This document shows positions 3,286 through 53,728 of a stretch of 64,000 nt of DNA, piece after piece; the first letter of the stretch is position 1, and the number at the start of each line of letters is the position of its first letter. The notes under the pieces are model-generated. The model was not told the DNA's origin. It saw only the letters and a list, made by a program, of their open reading frames with translations, and ran no database searches. The translations under genes and the position numbers were made by a program. This stretch comes from an uncultured Candidatus Saccharibacteria bacterium (GTDB lineage: Bacteria; Patescibacteriota; Minisyncoccia; Phycocordibacterales; UBA2100), in contig CAYIDD010000001.1 of the NCBI GenBank assembly GCA_964362175.1, forward strand, positions 569 to 64,568, written 5' to 3'.

Positions 3286-6200
3286 TTACTGAGCGTTCGG
3301 ATTCTGCGACCACGGGATCAGATTCGGGATCGGGAGCGTAAGCTGCGGACACTCGAGAAGATTGACCTGACGCAGTGTGGAGAGGTACACAAGGCCGGTC
3401 GGAGAAGCAATTCCCCACGGGCTCAAAATACTGTCGCTGTACTGTGCCTGGAACCTTCGAATCACGGCCTCAGTCATCGGGCCGTAGAATCCGGTGACCG
3501 GAAGGTTCGCACTCATGTGCTTGTTGAGGAACTCCTGAAGCTTGCGCGCCTGCTCGGCATCATTCTTCCTGCTGCCGATGCGAAGATGTTTGTCCATGTA
3601 GAGGCCGCAGGACGCCCCGAGTACCTGACCCGTCGAGGTACCGAGAACGGTCCCGCCTCCGAAGATCGGGTTGTTGAAGTGGCTGCCGCCTCCCCCACCG
3701 CCCGACGGAGGCGGAGTAACGATCGGGGTGTTGACGGTGATCGAAACGCTCCCGTCGTCGTTGTCACCGTTATAGTCGTTTGTAGAGCCGTCGGAGGTCG
3801 TGGTGGCAGTGTTAGTGACCGTCTGTCCTGCACCAGCCGTAACCGTCGCAACGATTTGGAGCGATGTTGAAGAGGCCGCGGGGAGCGAACTTATAAACCA
3901 TGTGCCGCTCGAGGTGGCATACGCACCAGCACCGTTGTCAGAGACATACGAGAGGCCCACAGGGAGCACGTCTTGCGTAACAAGGTTAAACGCTTCGGCA
4001 GGACCCGCGTTTGAGAGTGTGAGCGTAAAGGTTACGTTTTGTCCGGCGTCGGGGGTGTTGTCGTCAACCGACTTCGAGGTGGTGATGTCAAACCCGGTCG
4101 CGTTGTTGTAGAAGGTACAGGTGATGTTGTCACCCGCCGCGACATCTACGCTGTAGATGGTGTCGCCATCAAGCAATCCGCTTTCGTTGTTGCAGCTTGC
4201 TTCGGAGAGCGTCCAGCCGGCCGGGCTGACCTCCTGGAGGTTGTAAGTGCCCGCGTCAATCGAGATGGTGGCCGAACCGTCGCCCTCAGTGGTCGTGACG
4301 CTCGTAGAGGTGCTGAATTCGTTACCCCCCTCAAGGTTGAAGTCGAATGTCGCATCAGGGTTCCCTTCGCCGACGTATTTCACGATGTGAAGCGTCGCCT
4401 GTCCGTCATTGTTGGTGATGGCGCAGGTTTTCGTCTCGCCGTTCGCTATCGTGCCCGAGCAGTCGGCGCCGAGCGTTGTCCCGTAGCCGGCGGCGGAATT
4501 CTCGATAACTTCGTAGTCACCGGCATCAACCGTCACTGTGTTCTCGCCTGTCAGAGCGTTGCCGTCGTCATCCGCGGTCTCGTTAAATGCGATCGCCGAA
4601 CCGTCGCCAACATGGAAGAAGAAGTTGCTTGCGGTATTGGTGCCTCCATTGTTGTTGATGACCGTCTTTTGGATGATGAGCGTACCCGGCTGGTCGTCGT
4701 TGGTGATTGAGCAGATTGCGGTGTCAGCAAGACCGAGCGTAACACTGTTGCTCAAAATAGGGCTGCCGCCGTTCACCACACAGCTCCATGTCCCATCGGG
4801 GGTATAGCCCGCAGGACCGTCAGATTCAGAAAGCGAGTAGGTGCCCGTTTGGAAATTTGCAGTGCCTTGAGCAGTGCCGTTTCCTGAGATGATAGTAGGG
4901 CTTTCCTGGTCGCCGGTGGCGGTAACTGTCCAGTCCTCCGGCAATGCTTGGCCGCCGTCATCCTTCACTACGATTTTTTCGAGAATGAGCGTAGGCCTGA
5001 TGTCGTCGTTGGTGATGGTGCACACGTAAGAGTGTCCCGCCTCAACCGCGATAGAGGAAGTTTTAACCGCTGAGCCGCCGTCCGTCGAACACATAATGCT
5101 CGTTGGTTCGTAATCGCCTGCCGGACCGCCGTCTTCACTGATGGTGTAGGTGTTGGGAGCAAGAAGTGTTGCCACGCCATCGGAAAGTTGGGTCGCGTTG
5201 GCGAAAAGCGTCCAAGCGCTTGCAAGAGCACCGCCGCCGTTGTCGTTAGTAACGTGCTTTCTGATGGTGAGGTAACCCTGAGTCGATGGAGTATCGTTGT
5301 TGGTAACGGTGCAGGTCTTTTCGCCGCCCTCGGGCATCACGGCATCGCAATCAGCTGAGTAAGAAACGCCGTAACCGGACGGGCCGTCGGTCTCAGTAAC
5401 GCTGTAGGATGCGCCGCCGTCGATAGTGACGCTAGCGCCCGGTGAAGAATCTGTACCAACGACAGACGAAGGATCAGGATTGCCGCCAGTCACCGAGAGG
5501 GTGAAGTCTGACGAGGTTGCGGTGCCGCTGAATTCTCCGGCGTTGTCGTTTTGTACAAGCTTGATGATACGAAGCGTGCCTGGCTGTTTGTCGCTGTTGG
5601 TGATGGTGCAGGTGACACTCTCGCCGAGACCGATCGCGAGATTCGCGCCGCTGATTGGCGTTGCATTACCCGTACACACCCATCCGCTGGCGTTGTAGCC
5701 CAACGGGCCACTCTCGCCGAGTGTGTAGGTATCCGCCTTGAACGTCGAGTCGCTCGTGACCGGCGTCGTGCCGCTGAGATTGGTCGGCGAACCGAGCGAG
5801 CCAACTGCAGTCAGTGTCCAATCAACCGCTTCAGAAATGCCGCGGTATACGATTTCTCCCATCTGTTTAATGAGTGTCAATGATGGCGCGTTGTCGTCAT
5901 TCGTGATGGTGCAGGTTGCACTTTGTCCAGCGACGAGCGTAACCGTATCTGCATCATTTTGTGTACCTGTGCCTGTGCAGACCCAGTCGCTTGCGCTATA
6001 ACCAGGCGGACCACTCTCCGAAAGGTTGTAGGAACCCGGATTGACGACGGCATTCGTAACGGACGCGCTATCTTCAATGCCCGAAATCGGTGTCGGGCCG
6101 GATGCGGAGAGCGTCCATGCCGTTTCGACTGCAGTACCTCCGTTATCGGTTACAACGGTTTTCTGAAGTGTCAGTGTTGCGGTAGTCGGAACGTCATCAT

Positions 6201-14322: not shown

Positions 14323-14565
14323 TTAGACAGCCAAAAGCTCGCGCAACCTCGCTTCGTCGAAGCCGACGATGAGGTCTTTCCCCACTGTGATGACGGGCAC
14401 GCCCATCTGTCCGCTCTTCTGTATCATCTCTTTGCGCTTTTCGAGATCGGTCCCAACATTGTAGTCCGTGAATGCGACGCTGTTCGCCGCGAAAAAATCT
14501 TTTGCCATGTGGCAGAAGTGGCAGGTAGGGGTCGAATAAATGGTAACGGGTACTTTGTTCGCCAT
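14323..14565 (-). CDS. glutaredoxin/NrdH-like redoxin
   Basis: 80 aa, CHFC active site, thioredoxin-fold pattern (VTIYSTPTCHFC ... GVPVI). Confidence 0.75.
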   Translation of the reverse strand: MANKVPVTIYSTPTCHFCHMAKDFFAANSVAFTDYNVGTDLEKRKEMIQKSGQMGVPVITVGKDLIVGFDEARLRELLAV

Positions 14566-23675: not shown

Positions 23676-24143
23676 TCACTCGGCGATATAAATCTCCGGA
23701 CTCACTTGATCGTATAAGCCTCCGGAACCCGCCTGCGTGCCGAGAGTAAGAACTACCGCCATAACGATGAGTGTCACGAGCCAGTACAGCGAGTTAATGA
23801 GATAGAGCCGGAATGGCTTGTGCTCCCACAACACCGTACCCAGCATAACGGGCGCCACGAATCCCACCCAGCACCAGAATCCGAGTTCGATCGCACCGAT
23901 CCAATCATACACACCCCACGCGATGCCGAAATAATTCATTACGTATGCAGCCATCATTCCTGCAAAAAGTGAAATGAGCGCATGAAGATGTCTGTTCTTC
24001 TTTCCACGCTCCGCCATTTCCGGTGTGATGTTGTTCAATCGCACCCACGCATTGCCGAAAACTTTTGGGTGATACCAAACCCATCCGATGAGCACGGAAG
24101 CAACGCCCGCCGCGAACACCGGCCAGAATGTAACATCGATCAT
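23676..24143 (-). CDS. DUF1761-family membrane protein
   Basis: MIDVTFWPVFAAGVASVLIGWVWYHPKVFGNAW N-terminus typical of DUF1761. The ORF track extends upstream to 24227, probably spuriously. Confidence 0.5.
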   Translation of the reverse strand: MIDVTFWPVFAAGVASVLIGWVWYHPKVFGNAWVRLNNITPEMAERGKKNRHLHALISLFAGMMAAYVMNYFGIAWGVYDWIGAIELGFWCWVGFVAPVMLGTVLWEHKPFRLYLINSLYWLVTLIVMAVVLTLGTQAGSGGLYDQVSPEIYIAE

Positions 24144-24212
24144 AGGCGCATGATAGCTCACGGACGCGCTCCGTCCAGACGAAGATGTGCATAGATGCGA
24201 AGGACAAGAGGA

Positions 24213-24236
24213 CACGCTTTCTCCCACACAAAGCGG
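24213..24236. repeat. 24-bp direct repeat, left copy (att-like), cacgctttctcccacacaaagcgg
   Basis: identical to 25952-25975, which abuts the 3' end of tRNA-Ser. Confidence 0.8.
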
Positions 24237-24339
24237 GCCGTCCGCAGTTCGAACTTTTAGAGATTAGCTACTTGCAACAAGTTATCCACTAACACAAAAC
24301 CGCCTACGGTGAATAGGCGGCTTGTGTCCTAAGTGACGA

Positions 24340-24504
24340 TTAACGACCACCCAAAATCCCACTGGGCTGTCTCGGTTCTTCGGGCTTTCCTCCCTTGTCC
24401 AACTCTCTTAATCGCTTCTCAACCTCCTCCAAACGCTGTGATATACGGGTGATTACCGCATTCACATGCGCATACAAACTCTCAACCGTGTCTGGTACTT
24501 TCAT
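24340..24504 (-). CDS. mini-ORF (54 aa, coiled-coil-like) inside AT-rich islet segment
   Basis: MKVPDTVESLYAHVNAVITRISQRLEEVEKRLRELDKGGKPEEPRQPSGILGGR. Divergent from a 48-aa ORF 26 nt away. Not in the ORF track (<60 aa). Confidence 0.25.
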   Translation of the reverse strand: MKVPDTVESLYAHVNAVITRISQRLEEVEKRLRELDKGGKPEEPRQPSGILGGR

Positions 24505-24530
24505 AATTACTCTTTCTAATTAACTCGACA

Positions 24531-24677
24531 ATGAATAAATCTACAAAGAAGTCTAAAATATCCTCTATTAGAGCCGATGTTAAGGCCTTACGAAAGGATT
24601 TTAAACTTCTCGCATCCCTCCTTGAACGTCTGTGTCAACTAACGGGGGCTAGTAGGGCCGAACTCGCGAAGATGTGA
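24531..24677 (+). CDS. mini-ORF (48 aa) ending in HTH-like LTGASRAELAKM (possible truncated Xre/excisionase-like regulator)
   Basis: MNKSTKKSKISSIRADVKALRKDFKLLASLLERLCQLTGASRAELAKM. Divergent partner of the 54-aa ORF. Confidence 0.25.
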   Translation: MNKSTKKSKISSIRADVKALRKDFKLLASLLERLCQLTGASRAELAKM

Positions 24678-24822
24678 ACTTACTTAAAAGGGGGTTACTA
24701 ATAATTAGTGTCCACAGTATACTACAATAACTTGTTGCAGGTATATAGGCTCTGAACTTTTGACATCAAGCACCGTAAGGGTTCTTTAGTAAGTTCCAGG
24801 GCGACTTGCCGAGGTGTCCGCA

Positions 24823-25767
24823 TCACGAGGCCTTATTTGCACCTTCAAGCTCTTCTTGTTTACTTCGGGCGTAACGATTTAACTCTTGACCTTGATCACT
24901 CAAGTAACCGGCCGTTGAAAAAGCACGCCATATTTTGCCTCGAGCTTCATTCATTTCTTTTAACGTTTGAGCGGTATCGAAAGTGTGTCTGAAGATACCG
25001 TACTCCTTATCCGTAGCGGTTTTTTGCAACTCTCTTCCTTGATAGGACAGACTGCCACCAGGGGTTACGCACAACTGCCATATCTTTGCCTTGATTTTTT
25101 CTAAACCATCAACGGTATTCTCTTCCTCTATCTGTTTTGAGAATATGCCAGCCATATGTTCGTTAGCTGCATGGTACACAATGTCCACAACCGATGAAAC
25201 AATCCGATAGTCGCTATGAATTACTTGATGTATCAGTTCCTTATATTGGTTTCTTAGACTGTCGATCTCTTCGACTGCTTTGATATTGCTAAAACCTTTC
25301 GCAAAAACCGATTTTATTTTCGATTCGAGCACGTCTGCAAGTTGTTTCTCGTTAAATTCGCCTTTGTCGTGCTTACCATACTTTTCATCATTCAAATCTT
25401 TCCGAAGCTTTAAAAGTTCTTCTATATTTTGCGCTGACTGTATTCGTTCGTTCCATGGTCGACTGTCTTTCTCTTCTCGTGGCGGCCATCTACGCTCGGG
25501 CTCACGTAACTGACCAGGAATATATTGTGCTCGCTTTTCGGGATCCTTGAGAGTGGCGTAGGCTTCCGAAACCAATTTCATTTTCTCGGCGTCTCCCCCA
25601 CTTTCCGAGTCGGGATGAAGGTTTTTTGAGATCGTTCTGAAAGCGACAGCAATTTCGGTCTGCGACGCATCGGACGCAACACCGAGTCTCGCATAAAAAT
25701 CAGCAGTAGCTTCGATATGCGGGGTCAAACGATTTTGCTTCGAACTTGGCTCGACCCGCTCTTTCAT
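24823..25767 (-). CDS. J-domain (DnaJ N-terminal domain) protein, no Zn-finger/CTD; low-GC, likely horizontally acquired
   Basis: DFYARLGV..EIAVAFRTISKNLHPDSE..KLVSEAYATLKDPEKRAQY with HPD tripeptide. The rest is a Lys/Glu-rich helical region with no recognisable domain. Confidence 0.6.
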   Translation of the reverse strand: MKERVEPSSKQNRLTPHIEATADFYARLGVASDASQTEIAVAFRTISKNLHPDSESGGDAEKMKLVSEAYATLKDPEKRAQYIPGQLREPERRWPPREEKDSRPWNERIQSAQNIEELLKLRKDLNDEKYGKHDKGEFNEKQLADVLESKIKSVFAKGFSNIKAVEEIDSLRNQYKELIHQVIHSDYRIVSSVVDIVYHAANEHMAGIFSKQIEEENTVDGLEKIKAKIWQLCVTPGGSLSYQGRELQKTATDKEYGIFRHTFDTAQTLKEMNEARGKIWRAFSTAGYLSDQGQELNRYARSKQEELEGANKAS

Positions 25768-25864
25768 GGCTAAACTATAACACTATCCGCAAAAGCTTCT
25801 TGAAGCCATCGACAACGCATCGAAACCATAGGCGTCCGCATACCTCCGATACTTCTTTCTTCGG

Positions 25865-25896
25865 GCGGAGGCGGAGAGATTCGAACTCTCGGTGCC
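25865..25896 (-). pseudogene. tRNA-Ser 3'-end fragment (32 nt, T-arm + acceptor 3' strand), duplicated att remnant
   Basis: gcggaggcggagagattcgaactctcggtgcc is identical to 25972-26003 of the intact tRNA-Ser. No 5' half is present. Confidence 0.7.
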
Positions 25897-25951
25897 CTCC
25901 CGATTTCTTCAAGCTCGCTTGATTAGAAATCGCAGTTCTTTAGGGTTGCGG

Positions 25952-25975
25952 CACGCTTTCTCCCACACAAAGCGG
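25952..25975. repeat. 24-bp direct repeat, right copy, overlapping tRNA-Ser 3' end
   Basis: cacgctttctcccacacaaagcgg; the last 3 nt are the tRNA discriminator region. Confidence 0.8.
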
Positions 25976-26057
25976 AGGCGGAGAGATTCGAACTCTCGGT
26001 GCCTTGCGGCACACACGCTTTCCAAGCGTGCGCACTAGACCACTATGCGACGCCTCC
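25973..26057 (-). tRNA. tRNA-Ser (GGA)
   Basis: acceptor GGAGGCG/CGCCTCC, 3-bp D-stem, anticodon stem CACGC/GCGTG with loop TTGGAAA, long variable arm TGCCGCAAGGCA, T-loop TTCGAAT. Confidence 0.8.
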
Positions 26058-26092
26058 GTGCGCATGAGTATACGACAACTCGGTAGAGGTTC

Positions 26093-26125
26093 AAAAAATA
26101 TGGCGGTCGCATTTGCGCGACCGCC
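26093..26125 (-). terminator. intrinsic terminator (hairpin + U-tract on minus strand)
   Basis: ggcggtcgc atttgc gcgaccgcc, a 9-bp stem 2 nt after the stop of ORF 26128..26391, followed on the minus strand by AUAUUUUUUG. Confidence 0.6.
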
Positions 26126-26127
26126 CT

Positions 26128-26391
26128 TCACATCCCCCTCGTCAACTTCGAGCTCCGCCGACGTCTGCGCCGTTTTTTGCTCAAGTACCACTTTTGTTGT
26201 TCGACGTCGGCAGCCGTGATCGGTCCGAGAAGTCGTTCCTTCGGCGGAGGGGTCCACATCACCGGAAGGACAATGATGATTGCAGACCCATCCATCCGGC
26301 GACACAACTTGGAACGCCAGTTCGGTTGAAACCAAATAACTGTGCCCATCATTGCCTCCATGATTAAGGGGCCGAACTCACAACACGTCAT
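26128..26391 (-). CDS. hypothetical protein (87 aa)
   Basis: ORF in the htpX-distal gene string. Supported mainly by the terminator immediately after its stop. Confidence 0.3.
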   Translation of the reverse strand: MTCCEFGPLIMEAMMGTVIWFQPNWRSKLCRRMDGSAIIIVLPVMWTPPPKERLLGPITAADVEQQKWYLSKKRRRRRRSSKLTRGM

Positions 26392-26649
26392 CTAGTTCTT
26401 CCTGTTCCACGGGTTTTTCCGCCCCGTGGGATTGCTTGAGTCGAACTTAAGCTCGACGGCTCGCAACGGCACCACCGTCGCTTGAGACGCAGCGAACTCC
26501 CGACCCCGCTTCAGCTGGCGCGCAGCCTCTTCCGCCAGCAGATCCTCGACACTTTTCATCCTTTCCTCAGGCAGAGTTTCCCGGAAAATCCGGTTGACCG
26601 CCTCCTGAGCCCGCAACCATCGGTAGTGAGCGAGCCTGATTATCGTCAT
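26392..26649 (-). CDS. hypothetical protein (~85 aa)
   Basis: ORF contiguous with the downstream one. Start taken at MTIIRLAHYRWL. Confidence 0.3.
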   Translation of the reverse strand: MTIIRLAHYRWLRAQEAVNRIFRETLPEERMKSVEDLLAEEAARQLKRGREFAASQATVVPLRAVELKFDSSNPTGRKNPWNRKN

Positions 26650-26702
26650 CGTTGGCGGCCTCCTCGCCCGCTTCGGACACAATAGTATAGGGACTGTGCT
26701 TG

Positions 26703-27599
26703 TCAAACGTTGAGCCCGCGAAGTGCCGCGACACGCTCTTCAACGGGCGGATGTGTGCTGAACATCTTTGCGATGAATTTGCCCGCCTCGTGCGCACCAA
26801 AAGGATTCGAGATAAATAGGTGCGCCGTCGCGTGATTCGCGCGCTGCATAGGTGCTTCGTACGAAGAAATTTTTTGCAGTGCGGAAGCAAGAGCATCGGG
26901 ATAGCGCGTGAGGAGTGCGCCGGAAGCGTCGGCGAGGAATTCCCGCTTTCTGGAAACAGCCATTTGTATCAATTGCGCTGCGATTGGCGCGAGTACGATG
27001 GCAACAATACCCGCAACGAGAAGCAGCGGATTTTTATTATCCCGGTCCCCATGCCCGAAAAAGCTCATGCGCAGGAAAATATCCGAGATGATGGCAATGA
27101 ATCCCGCCAAGACAACAGCGACCGTCATTACCAGAATGTCGCGATTCCCGATGTGCGAGAGTTCGTGTGCGAGCACTCCCTCAAGCTCACTCCTGTCGAG
27201 CCGCGCGAGGAGCCCCGTCGTCACGGCAACGACTGCATGCTTGGCATCGCGCCCCGCGGCAAACGCATTGGGTGCCTGATCATCTATTACATACAACCGC
27301 GGCTTGGGAAGCCCCGCGGTGATGGCGAGATTTTCCAATATCCGGTGCAATTCGAGGTACTGAACTGAGTCGGCCTCATGCGCGCCACTTGATGCAAGCG
27401 CGATCTTATCGGAAAACCAGTACGCGGTGACATTCATGAAAAGCGAGAACGCAACGGCCGCGTACAGTATCGCGGCATTGCCGTATATCTGCGAAACGAT
27501 CCATCCGACCGCGATCACGACGACCAAAAATCCGGTCATCAAAAACCACGTCCTGCGAATATTTTTTCCCTGTTGTGTGTACAGTGACGCCATACCCAA
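26703..27599 (-). CDS. htpX: membrane zinc protease HtpX (M48 family)
   Basis: HELSHIGNRD zinc motif, four TM helices. Confidence 0.85.
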   Translation of the reverse strand: MGMASLYTQQGKNIRRTWFLMTGFLVVVIAVGWIVSQIYGNAAILYAAVAFSLFMNVTAYWFSDKIALASSGAHEADSVQYLELHRILENLAITAGLPKPRLYVIDDQAPNAFAAGRDAKHAVVAVTTGLLARLDRSELEGVLAHELSHIGNRDILVMTVAVVLAGFIAIISDIFLRMSFFGHGDRDNKNPLLLVAGIVAIVLAPIAAQLIQMAVSRKREFLADASGALLTRYPDALASALQKISSYEAPMQRANHATAHLFISNPFGAHEAGKFIAKMFSTHPPVEERVAALRGLNV

Positions 27600-51593: not shown

Positions 51594-51760
51594 ACGAACA
51601 CGGCAAGAATCTGACAAAAGTTGTCCGGGAGAACTTCGACTTCCGTCCGCGCGCCATTCAAGACCGCCTCGGCCTCCGCAAACCCATCTTCCGCGAAACC
51701 GCCGCCTACGGTCACTTCGGTGTGAGCGGTAGACCTTGGGAAAAAATAATCAAGATCTAA
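51594..51760 (+). pseudogene. metK 3'-terminal fragment (last 55 codons), diverged copy (~87% nt identity to resident metK 50479-50645)
   Basis: encodes DEHGKNLTKVVRENFDFRPRAIQDRLGLRKPIFRETAAYGHFGVSGRPWEKIIKI. Joined to the glmS fragment at a tcgNcgaac microhomology. Confidence 0.85.
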
Positions 51761-53439
51761 GATTCGCTATTTCCCTCACGGTGGGACCCGACCACTAACG
51801 CAAATACGTTGCCATCCCCTTGAAACTCGGAGTACTTCTCGTCATCAATATTAGGTATATCAATCTCCGTCTGTACAACAGAGTAATCAGCCCCATCCAA
51901 AAATTTATCCGTTGCTTCCCCTATGTAATCGTAATTTGATATCAAAGCCTGTTCAGCATTCACCGAAATCAACGATATCCCCTTTTCTCTCGCCTCAGTT
52001 TCTAACTTAGAAAAGATATTTCGTATCGCGACATCCCAATCAAGCGCGACGGGAATTTGTATGGCATCTAAATGCCAGACTTTCTGTGTCTTGTCATCTT
52101 TTGTTGTTGTCGACAACAGATAGATATTCCCGACATGTTTATTATCAGGATCATATACTTTCACGTTGTAGAGCGGGAGGACAAGGTCGTCAAACGGAAG
52201 AGGGCGCCCGTCCGTGCAGTCACCACTTACGGCCCCAGGATTCCGATCGAGCGTCTCGTCTGGCCTTGCGTCAAGAGTAAATATAGATTTTTTGCCTTCC
52301 ATTCCTCCGTGAACAAGCTGTCGTTGCAGAGATTTGATTTTTCTGTTCAGATACTGCGCAACAGCTTCTGGCCCTAGGAAGAAGGTTGCAACGCCCGCGA
52401 GCAGGCGTTGGTTGAATTCTCGTTTACTCTTGAGTGTTTTGAGTTCGCCGCTCAAAGCTCGTTTTTCTTCGTTCGTGGCGGTCTTCATTCTTTCTCGCAA
52501 TTCGCGCTCCGTGTCCGACGCCAAGGTATGCTCACGAGTCGCATTAAGTGCTTGCGAGATCTGATTGGCATTCAAGAGCTTGTCTGCTGCGCCATGTAAA
52601 TCGTGACGCTCCAGGATCCTTGCGAATAAGCGCTTGCTGATGTCGAAGATATTATTTCCAAACTTTGCCTGTGTCTCATCAGACATTTCGACCGGATAAA
52701 ATAAATCGCCTCCCTGCGGCTGGTTTTCCGTTAGTTTTTGCCAAGACTCTTCTCGATAGAAATCTGGATCCGCCAACTTACCTCGCAGTCGCTCGAGCGA
52801 TTCGTATAGCTCTATTGATGCCTCTCCTGGCCATTTCTCAAAATCATCATCTTCGAAATTGTGCGTGTGCTTTTCTTGGATATCGTGAGGTTTGACCTTT
52901 TCAAACTCTGCGCAACCCTTTCTCACCAAACTCTTCACGCGATCGTAGAATATATCGCCGAGAAATTCATCCAGTTCCTTTGGAGTTACTTGCCCAAGAT
53001 GTTCGAGCATTGCTGGATCTTTGAGCTCTTGCAGGAGAGTGGATAGAGGGCTTCCATCGCCATCTATTTCCTTGATACAAGTTTCAGCTTCAGGGGAGAC
53101 TGCATTTTCCAGTGCTTCTAAGTTACCGAAAAGCAAGTCAACTTCCGAAAAGTCGATACGTCTTCCCATCTTGTTCCCTGATACCTCAAACGAGAGTGTC
53201 TCGAACGGGACATTTTCTTTCTTACGTTCGATTGCTTCCTGTTTTTGTTGTTTTTCTCTTTCGATCTCTCCTATTCTAGATTTTGGAATGATGCGATCGC
53301 CATCTTCGATTCGAGTGTATCCAATTGCCTCCAGGGCTTCGTCGGGGATGTCTCGAATATTCTTGTGTTGGCCCAATAAGTCCTGGATCGTTGGTTGCTT
53401 TTGTCCAGGCGGTCGTACCCTCTCCGGCATGATTTGCAT
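51757..53439 (-). CDS. orphan acidic protein (~560 aa from MQIMPERV; ORF-track frame is 606 aa)
   Basis: long uninterrupted ORF. Its stop overlaps the stop of the metK fragment. TATAAT immediately upstream of the ATG. No recognisable domain. Confidence 0.6.
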   Translation of the reverse strand: MQIMPERVRPPGQKQPTIQDLLGQHKNIRDIPDEALEAIGYTRIEDGDRIIPKSRIGEIEREKQQKQEAIERKKENVPFETLSFEVSGNKMGRRIDFSEVDLLFGNLEALENAVSPEAETCIKEIDGDGSPLSTLLQELKDPAMLEHLGQVTPKELDEFLGDIFYDRVKSLVRKGCAEFEKVKPHDIQEKHTHNFEDDDFEKWPGEASIELYESLERLRGKLADPDFYREESWQKLTENQPQGGDLFYPVEMSDETQAKFGNNIFDISKRLFARILERHDLHGAADKLLNANQISQALNATREHTLASDTERELRERMKTATNEEKRALSGELKTLKSKREFNQRLLAGVATFFLGPEAVAQYLNRKIKSLQRQLVHGGMEGKKSIFTLDARPDETLDRNPGAVSGDCTDGRPLPFDDLVLPLYNVKVYDPDNKHVGNIYLLSTTTKDDKTQKVWHLDAIQIPVALDWDVAIRNIFSKLETEAREKGISLISVNAEQALISNYDYIGEATDKFLDGADYSVVQTEIDIPNIDDEKYSEFQGDGNVFALVVGSHREGNSES

Positions 53440-53465
53440 TATACTCCGGGCTATACTGGAGCACA

Positions 53466-53728
53466 TGGACCTCCTTGAACAACGTGTGCAGAAAATCGAG
53501 CAACGGAACAACTCCGTGGAGATGGATAAGGCTTGGGAAACAAGCTGGACGAGGACAGGGCTCGTCGCCGCATTCACCTACATAACGATGGGTGTTTTTC
53601 TATCATTCATCGACGTCACACGACCGTGGCTCTCGGCGACTGTGCCAACGTTGGGCTTTGTTCTCTCAACGCTCTCGATGCCGTATTTCAAGCGCGCGTG
53701 GGGCCGGAAACGAACTATTCTACGGTAA
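53466..53728 (+). CDS. possible small two-TM membrane protein (87 aa)
   Basis: MDLLEQRVQKIEQRNNSVEMDKAWETSWTRTGLVAAFTYITMGVFLSFIDVTRPWLSATVPTLGFVLSTLSMPYFKRAWGRKRTILR. Overlaps the glmS stop. Confidence 0.25.

Follow-up and report, generated by a model that had tools for sequence, protein, structure and literature searches.

The 64-kb stretch of DNA analysed here (the window) carries a tRNA-Ser(GGA) gene followed by an AT-rich islet that lies between two copies of a 24-nt direct repeat. On balance, we think that this locus is probably a stack of insertion scars in tRNA-Ser(GGA), and that the islet is a remnant without a recombinase, passenger DNA trapped between two of the scars. The kind of insertion in question can be seen directly in the clade: a unit consisting of a hairpin-forming left flank of about 64 nt (LF), a complete tRNA-Ser(GGA) and an 11-nt sequence (T11) interrupts a resident tRNA-Ser(GGA) gene between nucleotides 34 and 35. 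Its insertion kills the resident tRNA gene and supplies a replacement. Both 24-mers of the window are right-hand junctions of this kind, in which the 3′ end of the new tRNA is followed by T11 and then by nucleotides 35-43 of the disrupted tRNA, and the window locus records at least two events. The two 24-mers are identical because each joins the same conserved element end to the same tRNA position.

Composition of the two repeats and of the tRNA relics around them

Sequences of the locus are read here in the orientation of the tRNA, which is the minus strand of the window. Related loci and contigs that we compared with the window carry labels beginning with L, those from L090 to L096 being metagenome contigs from JGI. 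The features that bear on the repeats are as follows.

25973-26057, minus strand: functional tRNA-Ser(GGA) with no encoded CCA (Rfam tRNA model, 57.2 bits; ARAGORN gives 25972-26057)
25952-25975, minus strand: tRNA-proximal 24-mer (R copy), made of CCGC (25975-25972), T11 (TTTGTGTGGGA, 25971-25961) and GAAAGCGTG (25960-25952)
25865-25951, minus strand: rest of the displaced tRNA-Ser 3′ half, made of CCGCAA from the variable arm (25951-25946), a 49-nt insert (25945-25897) and a 32-nt 3′ end (25896-25865)
25826-25864, minus strand: trailerA, CCGAAGAAAGAAGTATCGGAGGTATGCGGACG (core TATCGGAGGTATGCGGACG, 25833-25851), recognized by its homologues behind tRNA-Ser in relatives
24727-24763, plus strand: inverted LF-like copy, an arm of inverted repeat I1 (37-nt repeat, 76% complementary, with a 13-nt perfect core)
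24237-24285, minus strand: degraded cassette body, made of an LF-like sequence at 24280-24259 (inverted-repeat arm 24249-24285) and segment X at 24258-24237
24213-24236, minus strand: distal 24-mer (L copy), made of CCGC (24236-24233), T11 (24232-24222) and GAAAGCGTG (24221-24213), the last matching nucleotides 35-43 of the original resident tRNA-Ser
24146-24212, minus strand: decayed 3′ end of the original tRNA-Ser (CTCTTGTCCTTCGC, 24210-24197) and native trailer, from alignment to L101

The 24-mer CACGCTTTCTCCCACACAAAGCGG occurs exactly twice in the 64 kb, at 24213-24236 and 25952-25975, with no third copy there even when up to three mismatches are allowed, and a 24-mer match appeared in none of 100 shuffles of the sequence. 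The pair is exact, as originally predicted, and its proximal copy overlaps the tRNA 3′ end by 3-4 nt, because the tRNA ends at 25973 according to Rfam or at 25972 according to ARAGORN. In the original prediction, the repeats were attachment (att) cores, used by an integrase at the 3′ end of the tRNA. This interpretation did not hold, as the 24-mer is composite, the break lies in the anticodon loop between nucleotides 34 and 35, and the junctions have no common core. GAAAGCGTG corresponds to canonical nucleotides 35-43 of tRNA-Ser, that is, the 3′ side of the anticodon loop and stem, and the whole 24-mer reads as a composite junction of 4 nt of tRNA 3′ end, the 11-nt T11 and nucleotides 35-43 of an older, disrupted tRNA-Ser.

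The sequence that follows the proximal 24-mer continues the same disrupted tRNA. In a global alignment of 25960-25865 with nucleotides 35-86 of the tRNA, 47 of 51 nt are kept in order. The last 32 nt, at 25865-25896, match 25972-26003 exactly and have no matching 5′ half next to them, both as predicted; the fragment is not, however, the second, nested att copy that it had been taken for, because it ends the displaced 3′ half that begins inside the R 24-mer and is separated from that beginning by the 49-nt insert. Homologues of trailerA lie directly 3′ of an intact tRNA in L056, L058, L020 and L014, after a 15-nt tRNA 3′ fragment in L083, and 3.5 kb downstream of the tRNA in L060. Because trailerA directly follows an intact tRNA in these relatives, the relic is a former complete tRNA-Ser with its own trailer. 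The 49-nt insert is weakly similar to segment X, at a level that about 3% of shuffles reach and that is not significant after multiple tests.

On its upstream side, the functional tRNA has a native leader and not the cassette left flank LF. A promoter-like site lies 9 nt upstream of the tRNA, and a TATA(C/A)(T/A) box about 10 nt upstream also occurs in the leaders of L010, L094 and L101. The tRNA itself is 100% identical to that of L013, a different species with a different trailer.

At the distal repeat, TTGTTGCAAGTAGCTAATCTCT followed by segment X, AAAAGTTCGAACTGCGGACGGC, lies directly upstream of the 24-mer. When TTGTTGCAAGTAGCTAATCTCT was compared with the left flank of L093, at the matching distance, 19 of 22 columns were identical (Smith-Waterman score 27, equalled by 1 of 2,000 shuffles); the inverted LF-like copy gave a match that 6 of 2,000 shuffles equalled. 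The two LF-like copies are the arms of a 37-nt inverted repeat around the two small open reading frames (ORFs) of the islet. Segment X, as read from the sequence, has GTTCGAA in T-loop register, with strands unlike those of the window tRNA at the T-stem and acceptor 3′ positions. We considered segment X as the 3′ end of another tRNA and rejected this, as 1.4 Mb of Kaiserbacteria sequence held no matching tRNA.

Beyond the distal 24-mer, positions 24210-24146 align to the tRNA-Ser 3′ end and trailer of L101, up to the start codon of the DUF1761 gene (score 40, 0 of 5,000 shuffles), pairing CTCTTGTCCTTCGC with CTCTCCGCCTCCGA and the stretch beginning ATCTATGCACATC with that beginning ATCTGTACACATC. 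The distal 24-mer marks the 34/35 break in the original tRNA, because this decayed tRNA 3′ end and the native trailer lie downstream of it. In L101-L106, whose DUF1761 is 67% identical, tRNA-Ser is followed after 56 nt by DUF1761. This arrangement, the empty site, is the one that the original prediction had anticipated, with tRNA-Ser directly followed by DUF1761. A within-species empty allele was not found, as all contigs with the exact DUF1761 or J-domain protein carry the islet. The next-closest DUF1761 protein is 74% identical, and there is no close sibling genome.

The islet also stands out in composition. The 1,715 bp between the 24-mers have a GC content of 45.1%, compared with a mean of 54.4% (s.d. 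2.1) in other 1,715-bp windows (z = -4.5); this is the lowest GC content among 1,177 windows, and the tetranucleotide distance of the islet is the largest in the window. The GC content at third codon positions is 0.42 in the J-domain gene of the islet versus 0.55-0.68 in the neighbouring genes. The islet DNA is compositionally foreign, and the AT richness claimed for it in the original prediction was confirmed. The second-lowest GC content (46.4%) and second-largest tetranucleotide distance were found at 51757-53577, which coincides with a 606-aa ORF without a Pfam match.

The best matches of RNR, a conserved gene on the DUF1761 side of the locus, were Kaiserbacteria-like metagenome-assembled genomes (92% identity), and the host is a Candidatus Kaiserbacteria (Candidate Phyla Radiation (CPR)/Patescibacteria) bacterium from groundwater; the window is part of a 113-kb contig from a Hainich metagenome. 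The sequence from 26057 to 23308 is identical in three replicate ENA assemblies, and the Logan assembly is concordant from 25893 downward. The locus is not an assembly artefact, because four assemblies made independently from this population contain the same sequence. One contig of the sample, L003 (1-127 and 10458-10537), matches the window only between tRNA-Ser and tRNA-Gly. Beyond both tRNAs it consists of AT-rich foreign sequence, and the acceptor 5′ strand of its tRNA-Ser is mismatched; it is an assembly chimera formed at tRNAs. The foreign leader of L003 and the 49-nt insert (25921-25931) have the 11-nt sequence TTCTAATCAAG in common.

Nested tRNA genes in related genomes

The search of related genomes that the original prediction had proposed for the 24-mer returned the same junction in the form CGC-T11-GAAAGC, located after tRNA-Ser(GGA) in L010, which is among the two closest genomes, and in the six metagenome contigs L090 and L092-L096. 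As L093 and L095 overlap and L094 and L096 are alike, each pair being one organism, the junction is present in at least four other organisms. The tRNA bodies before the shared junction are 81-91% identical to the window tRNA, and the downstream sequence differs between organisms. In 1.38 Mb of Kaiserbacteria sequence, T11 was observed 10 times and expected 0.66 times, and GAAAGC follows it every time. A seventh metagenome match, L091, is 68%-GC coding sequence without a tRNA and was treated as a chance 20-mer match.

In L090, L092 and L093/L095 the order of parts is complete: an older tRNA 5′ half that runs to ...GCTTG (G34), the LF of about 64 nt, a complete tRNA-Ser(GGA), T11, and the older 3′ half from G35 onward. 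In L092 the acceptor strands of the outer halves are complementary to each other (GGAGGGT/ACCCTCC) and the inner gene has its own pair (GGAGGCG/CGCCTCC); the outer 5′ half is identical at 35 of 35 positions to a functional tRNA of another genome. Because the outer halves differ from the inner gene and match another genome, the nesting in L092 reflects insertion of foreign DNA and not local duplication. Nesting is two levels deep in L090; L094 shows another T11-like junction, a degenerate one, 75 nt beyond the first; and L010 has kept a displaced 3′ half that is about 30% diverged. In the consensus fold of three full cassettes, LF forms a hairpin and the leader pairs with T11, extending the acceptor stem by about 12 bp; the LF hairpin was assessed in these three diverged copies only, with one fully compensatory pair and several pairs broken in one copy each.

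The break in the resident tRNA is blunt, after CTTG, without target duplication, and the left (attL, GCTTG/TTCCC) and right (attR, TGGGA/GAAAGC) junctions share no nucleotide. Standard action of a tyrosine or serine integrase is disfavoured because the junctions have no common core. In L095, which is equivalent to L093 in this respect, an IS200-like Y1 transposase (PF01797; 514-660 and 1300-2160) lies 1 kb from the cassette, with inverted GGGGACAGTCACCATAT repeats on the flanks of its gene and a tandemly duplicated upstream unit; an 84%-identical copy of the last 49 codons of this gene adjoins the tRNA-Ser cassette. We rejected this neighbourhood as evidence of a link between the Y1 transposase and the cassette, as the transposase's own REP-like flanking repeats share nothing with LF or T11. 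Distant Y1_Tnp homologues (24-29% identity) also occur 1-3.5 kb past the 3′ end of RNR, on either strand, in L028, L032, L063, L065, L066, L071, L074, L075, L081 and L085, with none in the window.

The gene order LemA-HtpX-tRNA-Ser(GGA)-gap-DUF1761-DUF192-RNR is kept in about 40 related genomes, with a gap that ranges from 56-90 bp to 7.5 kb. The cargo of the gap is unrelated between genomes and includes glycosyltransferases, ABC transporters, ATP-grasp and NUDIX proteins and a cytochrome d1-like protein. Because gap size and content vary within a conserved gene order, the stretch behind tRNA-Ser(GGA) is a hot spot throughout the clade. The tRNA-Ser(GGA) alleles of the window, L010, L094, L092 and L013 are mosaics of arm-sized modules; the L094 tRNA, for example, has the D arm of the window tRNA and is like L010 from the anticodon arm onward, and L010 equals the inner tRNA of L092 over the first ~50 nt. 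The claim of repeated use of the site is supported by the hot spot and by the record of at least two events, but the 32-nt fragment from which it was derived is not a nested att copy.

In the short-gap genomes L015 (1803-1823), L016 (8502-8520) and L050 (6998-7016), the 3′ end of tRNA-Ser recurs as a copy of 19-21 nt. This copy lies 120-200 nt downstream of the gene, past a terminator-like hairpin and an inverted T-loop-like motif. In L043 (3630-7069), the gap contains an ORF for a 617-aa large serine recombinase that runs antisense into tRNA-Ser(GGA). The same locus has a 46-nt inverted copy of the tRNA end and trailer at 5310-5355 and inverted duplicates of both ends of the recombinase gene, which suggests past inversions.

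Comparable nesting was found at two other tRNAs. A complete tRNA-Gly(CCC) is flanked by 5′ and/or 3′ tRNA-Gly fragments in L083 (19965-20160), L084 (19350-19541), L064 (14368-14543) and L049 (20364-20518). In L084 the inner tRNA-Gly lies between perfect 12-bp inverted repeats (CCCCGTTAGATA and TATCTAACGGGG) and the outer copy is broken at 35/36. In L075 (950-1155), a tRNA-Ile(UAU) lies inside a nearly intact outer tRNA-Ile, as a 147-nt insert with TA at both junctions; the acceptor stem of the outer tRNA-Ile has 7 of 7 pairs and a sequence different from that of the inner one. The inner tRNA stands within a leader-trailer inverted repeat in L083, L084 and L075, which we examined closely. At the same loci, 30 tRNA-Arg and 21 tRNA-Phe genes had no flanking partial copies except truncations at locus ends. 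In L064, at 14440-14499, two similar hairpins resembling repetitive extragenic palindromic (REP) sequences, with CCTACGG loops, take the place of the 5′ strand of the anticodon stem of the relic tRNA-Gly.

Genes for large serine recombinases (with Resolvase, Recombinase and Zn_ribbon_recom domains) are present in L075 (20030-21607) and L067 (19200-20741). In both, the gene is on the opposite strand and its stop codon lies about 100 bp downstream of the end of tRNA-Gly(CCC), which is preceded by an older tRNA-Gly 5′ fragment and a 17-nt spacer like that of L083, which has no recombinase (16 of 17 nt in L075). These loci may be full-length relatives of the cassettes. We tentatively propose, with less confidence than for the window locus itself, that Kaiserbacteria and perhaps other CPR bacteria harbour tRNA-overwriting elements. 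Such an element would consist of a complete tRNA in a leader-trailer helix, would insert without target duplication in the anticodon-arm region of the resident gene for that tRNA and, by inactivating it, would make its own copy essential. Repeated insertion would give Russian-doll arrays of half tRNAs; streamlining would leave cassettes of ~150-170 nt, and longer versions would carry a J-domain islet or a large serine recombinase (L067, L075).

Islet cargo, proposed history and alternatives

Outside the junctions, the islet and its immediate surroundings contain the following.

26067-26094, minus strand: promoter-like site TTGAAC-16-TATACT of the functional tRNA, from a consensus scan only
24823-25767, minus strand: passenger gene for a 314-aa J-domain protein (PF00226, residues 23-82, 60 bits, E = 2e-16)
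24340-24504, minus strand: 54-aa ORF, called by the gene finder
24177-24150, minus strand: promoter-like site for DUF1761 within the native trailer, from a consensus scan
23676-24143, minus strand: DUF1761 gene (PF08570), the conserved right-hand neighbour of the hot spot, by synteny in ~40 Kaiserbacteria genomes

As predicted, the cargo amounts to a J-domain gene and two mini-ORFs (314, 54 and 48 aa), with no integrase and no match to a recombinase family. In the J-domain protein, the HPD motif can be seen in the alignment (LHPD), and the J domain is 73% identical to that of one other metagenomic protein. Among 5.8 billion proteins only the J domain found matches, the C-terminal 230 aa having no homologues; the DnaJ C-terminal and zinc-finger domains that are present in the best matches are absent from the islet protein. 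Its C-terminal part is all-helical in a single-sequence AlphaFold model (pLDDT 68), which has no fold match in PDB or BFVD at E ≤ 0.001. J domains recruit DnaK, and the islet protein is predicted to do likewise. The 54-aa ORF has no homologue outside the source organism among the same 5.8 billion proteins and is followed by a hairpin and T-run that we read from the sequence at about 24298-24330. The gene finder did not call the 48-aa ORF, which has no homologues. Viral contigs yielded only weak J-domain matches to the 314-aa protein, and no homologues of the islet genes were found in the hot-spot gaps of related genomes.

The ORFs between the repeats contain no recombinase in comparisons with Pfam and PHROGs. 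Using tblastn, neither the large serine recombinase of L043 nor a Y1 transposase found a match in the 64 kb, and a Pfam survey of 50 ORFs elsewhere in the window gave no recombinase among the best 25 families listed. Rfam models identified only tRNA at E ≤ 0.001, with no Intron_gpI, over the window region, L090, L092, L093 and L094. The earlier description of the islet as a decayed integrative element remains apt for a foreign remnant at a hot spot that lacks a recombinase, and fails as regards an integrase acting at the tRNA 3′ end. On the other side of the tRNA, between HtpX and the tRNA (26128-26706), two ORFs (85-87 aa and 104 aa) match nothing in Pfam or, by tblastn, in 80 related loci; the spacer between HtpX and the tRNA varies among relatives from ~20 bp to >4 kb.

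The history that we propose starts from an ancestral state in which tRNA-Ser was directly followed by DUF1761. A composite unit of ~1.8-1.9 kb with cassette ends on both sides would have inserted at 34/35 of the resident tRNA. The inserted stretch, ~1.8 kb, would begin at nucleotide 35 of today's tRNA (~26022) and run as far as the distal T11, whose end lies at 24222. It would have brought in the replacement tRNA and an older junction (T11, trailerA and the relic 3′ half) together with the J-domain gene and the small ORFs of a donor of lower GC content. The two tRNA 5′ halves would be direct repeats ~64 nt apart, and recombination between them would later have removed LF and left a functional gene behind a native promoter-like leader, an arrangement also present in L010 and L094. 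After that, the tRNA belonging to the second cassette would have been deleted, and the remnant would now be immobile. The make-up of the repeats, the relic halves, the recurring junction, the empty site and the deviant composition were observed directly; the order of events, the loss of LF and the mobility of the composite are what we infer in this account. A single composite insertion would be the simplest history, and it is possible that there were two separate insertions and a later capture of the islet. As to the enzyme, our first guess, held with low confidence and prompted by the large serine recombinases of intact-looking relatives at other tRNAs, is a dedicated serine-type recombinase; none is encoded in the window.

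Several observations weigh against this reading. No LF or outer 5′ half lies upstream of the functional tRNA of the window, for which reason the loss of LF has to be assumed, and the order of events cannot be read from comparisons because no close sibling genome exists. Segment X matches the window tRNA only at GTTCGAA and CCGC and may never have been tRNA-Ser. The two 24-mers are identical at 24 of 24 nt while the adjacent relic of the original tRNA is ~71% conserved, and to explain this identity beside a decayed relic one has to invoke selection, gene conversion or an event of recent date. No crossover dinucleotide of the kind that a serine recombinase should leave is shared by the tRNA-Ser junctions, and none is compatible with them and an attB of CTTGGAAAG. 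The metagenome matches could show no other target, because the search pattern contained GAAAGC. The cassette family is documented by a handful of short contigs. No full-length element bearing T11 was found, and viral contigs were empty for the 24-mer, 20-mer and left-flank patterns.

Among the alternatives, the one that survives best, which we nevertheless regard as unlikely, dispenses with a dedicated recombinase. In this explanation, transformed Kaiserbacteria DNA would enter by homologous or homology-facilitated illegitimate recombination anchored on the tRNA, and a nested allele that arose in a rare event would spread by double crossover in the flanking tRNA halves. The mosaic structure of the tRNA-Ser alleles (L094, L010 and L092) fits this, as do the outer halves that are 100% identical to functional tRNAs of other genomes, which would be expected if transfers renew the halves, and an islet without a recombinase, for which tblastn with the Y1 transposase and the serine recombinase was empty over the 64 kb. 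However, the blunt 34/35 junction, the structurally conserved LF hairpin and the leader-trailer helix recur across diverged copies, and the same architecture is present at three tRNAs, with some nested tRNA-Gly genes adjoining a serine recombinase. These points indicate a dedicated mechanism.

We consider it less probable still that a classical integrative element is responsible, with an integrase joining a 24-bp attP core to an attB of the same sequence in the tRNA 3′ end and trailer, so that the 24-mers would be attL and attR of a 1.7-kb element that has lost its integrase. Perfect 24-bp direct repeats around foreign DNA at a tRNA, together with an empty arrangement in a relative, are what such an element would leave. 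The tRNA-T11-GAAAGC sequence stands behind a native-looking leader in L010 and L094, so the host attB could already have carried it, and the element side of the distal repeat (segment X and the LF-like sequence) resembles a tRNA-derived P arm. On the other hand, only 3-4 nt of the 24-mer come from the tRNA 3′ end, while 9 nt are positions 35-43 and continue into the 3′ half. The distal repeat lies at a break in the tRNA body, with a decayed 3′ end and native trailer after it, and there is no integrase. The cores used by known tyrosine integrases that target tRNAs measure 30-45 bp and take in the 3′ half (PMC10865867).

The tRNA-Ser 3′ region and trailer might instead have been duplicated in tandem in situ and then have diverged, the low-GC genes being inserted later and independently. 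Such a duplication would account for repeats that are direct and near the tRNA, but is very improbable: identity between the copies is mosaic (24 of 24, then 2 of 13, then 8 of 8), T11 and LF occur in other genomes where inner and outer tRNAs differ in sequence, and trailerA is unlike the native trailer, each having homologues in a different set of genomes. An assembly artefact or chance repeats can be dismissed for practical purposes, since four assemblies are concordant and 0 of 100 shuffles yield a 24-mer match, even though the chimeric ends of L003 exactly at tRNA-Ser and tRNA-Gly show that assemblers do switch genomes at tRNAs.

Relation to known systems and meaning for the clade

The closest described system is the tRNA-dependent lysogeny of actinobacteriophages, in which insertion in the anticodon-loop region destroys a host tRNA that is not rebuilt (Guerrero-Bustamante & Hatfull 2024, PMC10865867). 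Here too, a break in the anticodon loop of the resident tRNA was left unrepaired: the islet has relic 3′ halves from G35 on either side, L090, L092 and L093 have outer 5′ halves that end at G34, and a replacement tRNA stands inside a split older copy in L090, L092 and L093/L095, as would also have been the case in the window, where LF is absent. The two differ in enzyme, core, size and host. Tyrosine integrases of complete temperate phages act in tRNA-dependent lysogeny, with a common core of 3-10 bp and the tRNA elsewhere in the phage genome (PMC10865867), whereas the unit described here can be as small as ~165 nt, has the tRNA as the body of the insert, leaves nested scars and resides in a CPR host, and the window locus has no common core, phage genes or integrase. 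A tyrosine integrase with an anticodon-loop core would fit the logic of disruption and replacement, but would not, from the junction sequences, fit their lack of a core.

Classical tRNA islands share with this locus the hot spot, the foreign cargo, borders marked by partial tRNA copies, relatives with an empty site and decay that leaves no recombinase. They differ in that here the repeat is not a tRNA 3′ segment, 5′ halves are also left in relatives, the break is at 34/35, no tRNA is rebuilt from the repeat, and the 32-nt repeat brackets only 75 bp. Elements with large serine recombinases are similar in that a recombinase adjoins tRNA-Ser(GGA) in L043 and tRNA-Gly(CCC) in L067 and L075. Large serine recombinases need no extended homology, so that a tRNA target would not be rebuilt. 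Unlike such elements, however, the window has no recombinase and the tRNA-Ser junctions have no 2-bp crossover, a shared TA being present only at the tRNA-Ile of L075.

Elements of the IS200/IS605 and RAYT/REP families may resemble the cassettes in having no target duplication, insertion beside a short fixed sequence (here ...CTTG), hairpins conserved in structure but not in sequence, and small non-autonomous units, and in one genome a Y1 transposase lies 1 kb from the cassette. An HUH Y1 transposase acting on hairpins would fit both the blunt insertion after CTTG and the hairpins. However, that Y1 gene has unrelated REP-like repeats, the window has no Y1 gene, and we know of no element of these families with a tRNA as its body. 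Group I introns of Patescibacteria occupy the anticodon loops of tRNAs, in a target region from 33/34 to 36/37 (PMC13011429); phylum, target region and absence of target duplication are the same, whereas the insert here is a tRNA gene without an Rfam ribozyme and the halves around it are for the most part pieces of decayed pseudogenes and not exons. In the literature library that we searched, we found no description of bacterial tRNA genes nested in halves of a tRNA that shares their isotype.

Islets at tRNA hot spots are nothing unusual; what is unusual here is how the tRNA was hit. With a new tRNA-Ser inserted in the anticodon loop of its predecessor, CPR bacteria may have a way of overwriting tRNA genes that has not been described. 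The T11 junction, the LF hairpin and the serine recombinases of L067, L075 and L043 provide concrete substrates for experiments. Two cautions follow for work on such genomes: direct repeats next to tRNAs in CPR genomes are not automatically 3′-end att sites, and assemblies can switch genomes at sites of the tRNA-Ser and tRNA-Gly type.

In the textbook route to a genomic island, an integrase rebuilds the 3′ end of the tRNA. If the anatomy described here is right, islands in these ultra-small bacteria can form by another route, in which the incoming DNA destroys the resident tRNA and brings a substitute. If true, this would account for the mosaic tRNA alleles, the half-tRNA relics on both sides and the clade-wide hypervariable gap behind tRNA-Ser(GGA). 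It would also amount to an addiction-like strategy of a mobile element, and would give genomes with few classical integrases a general means of replacing tRNA alleles and forming islands.

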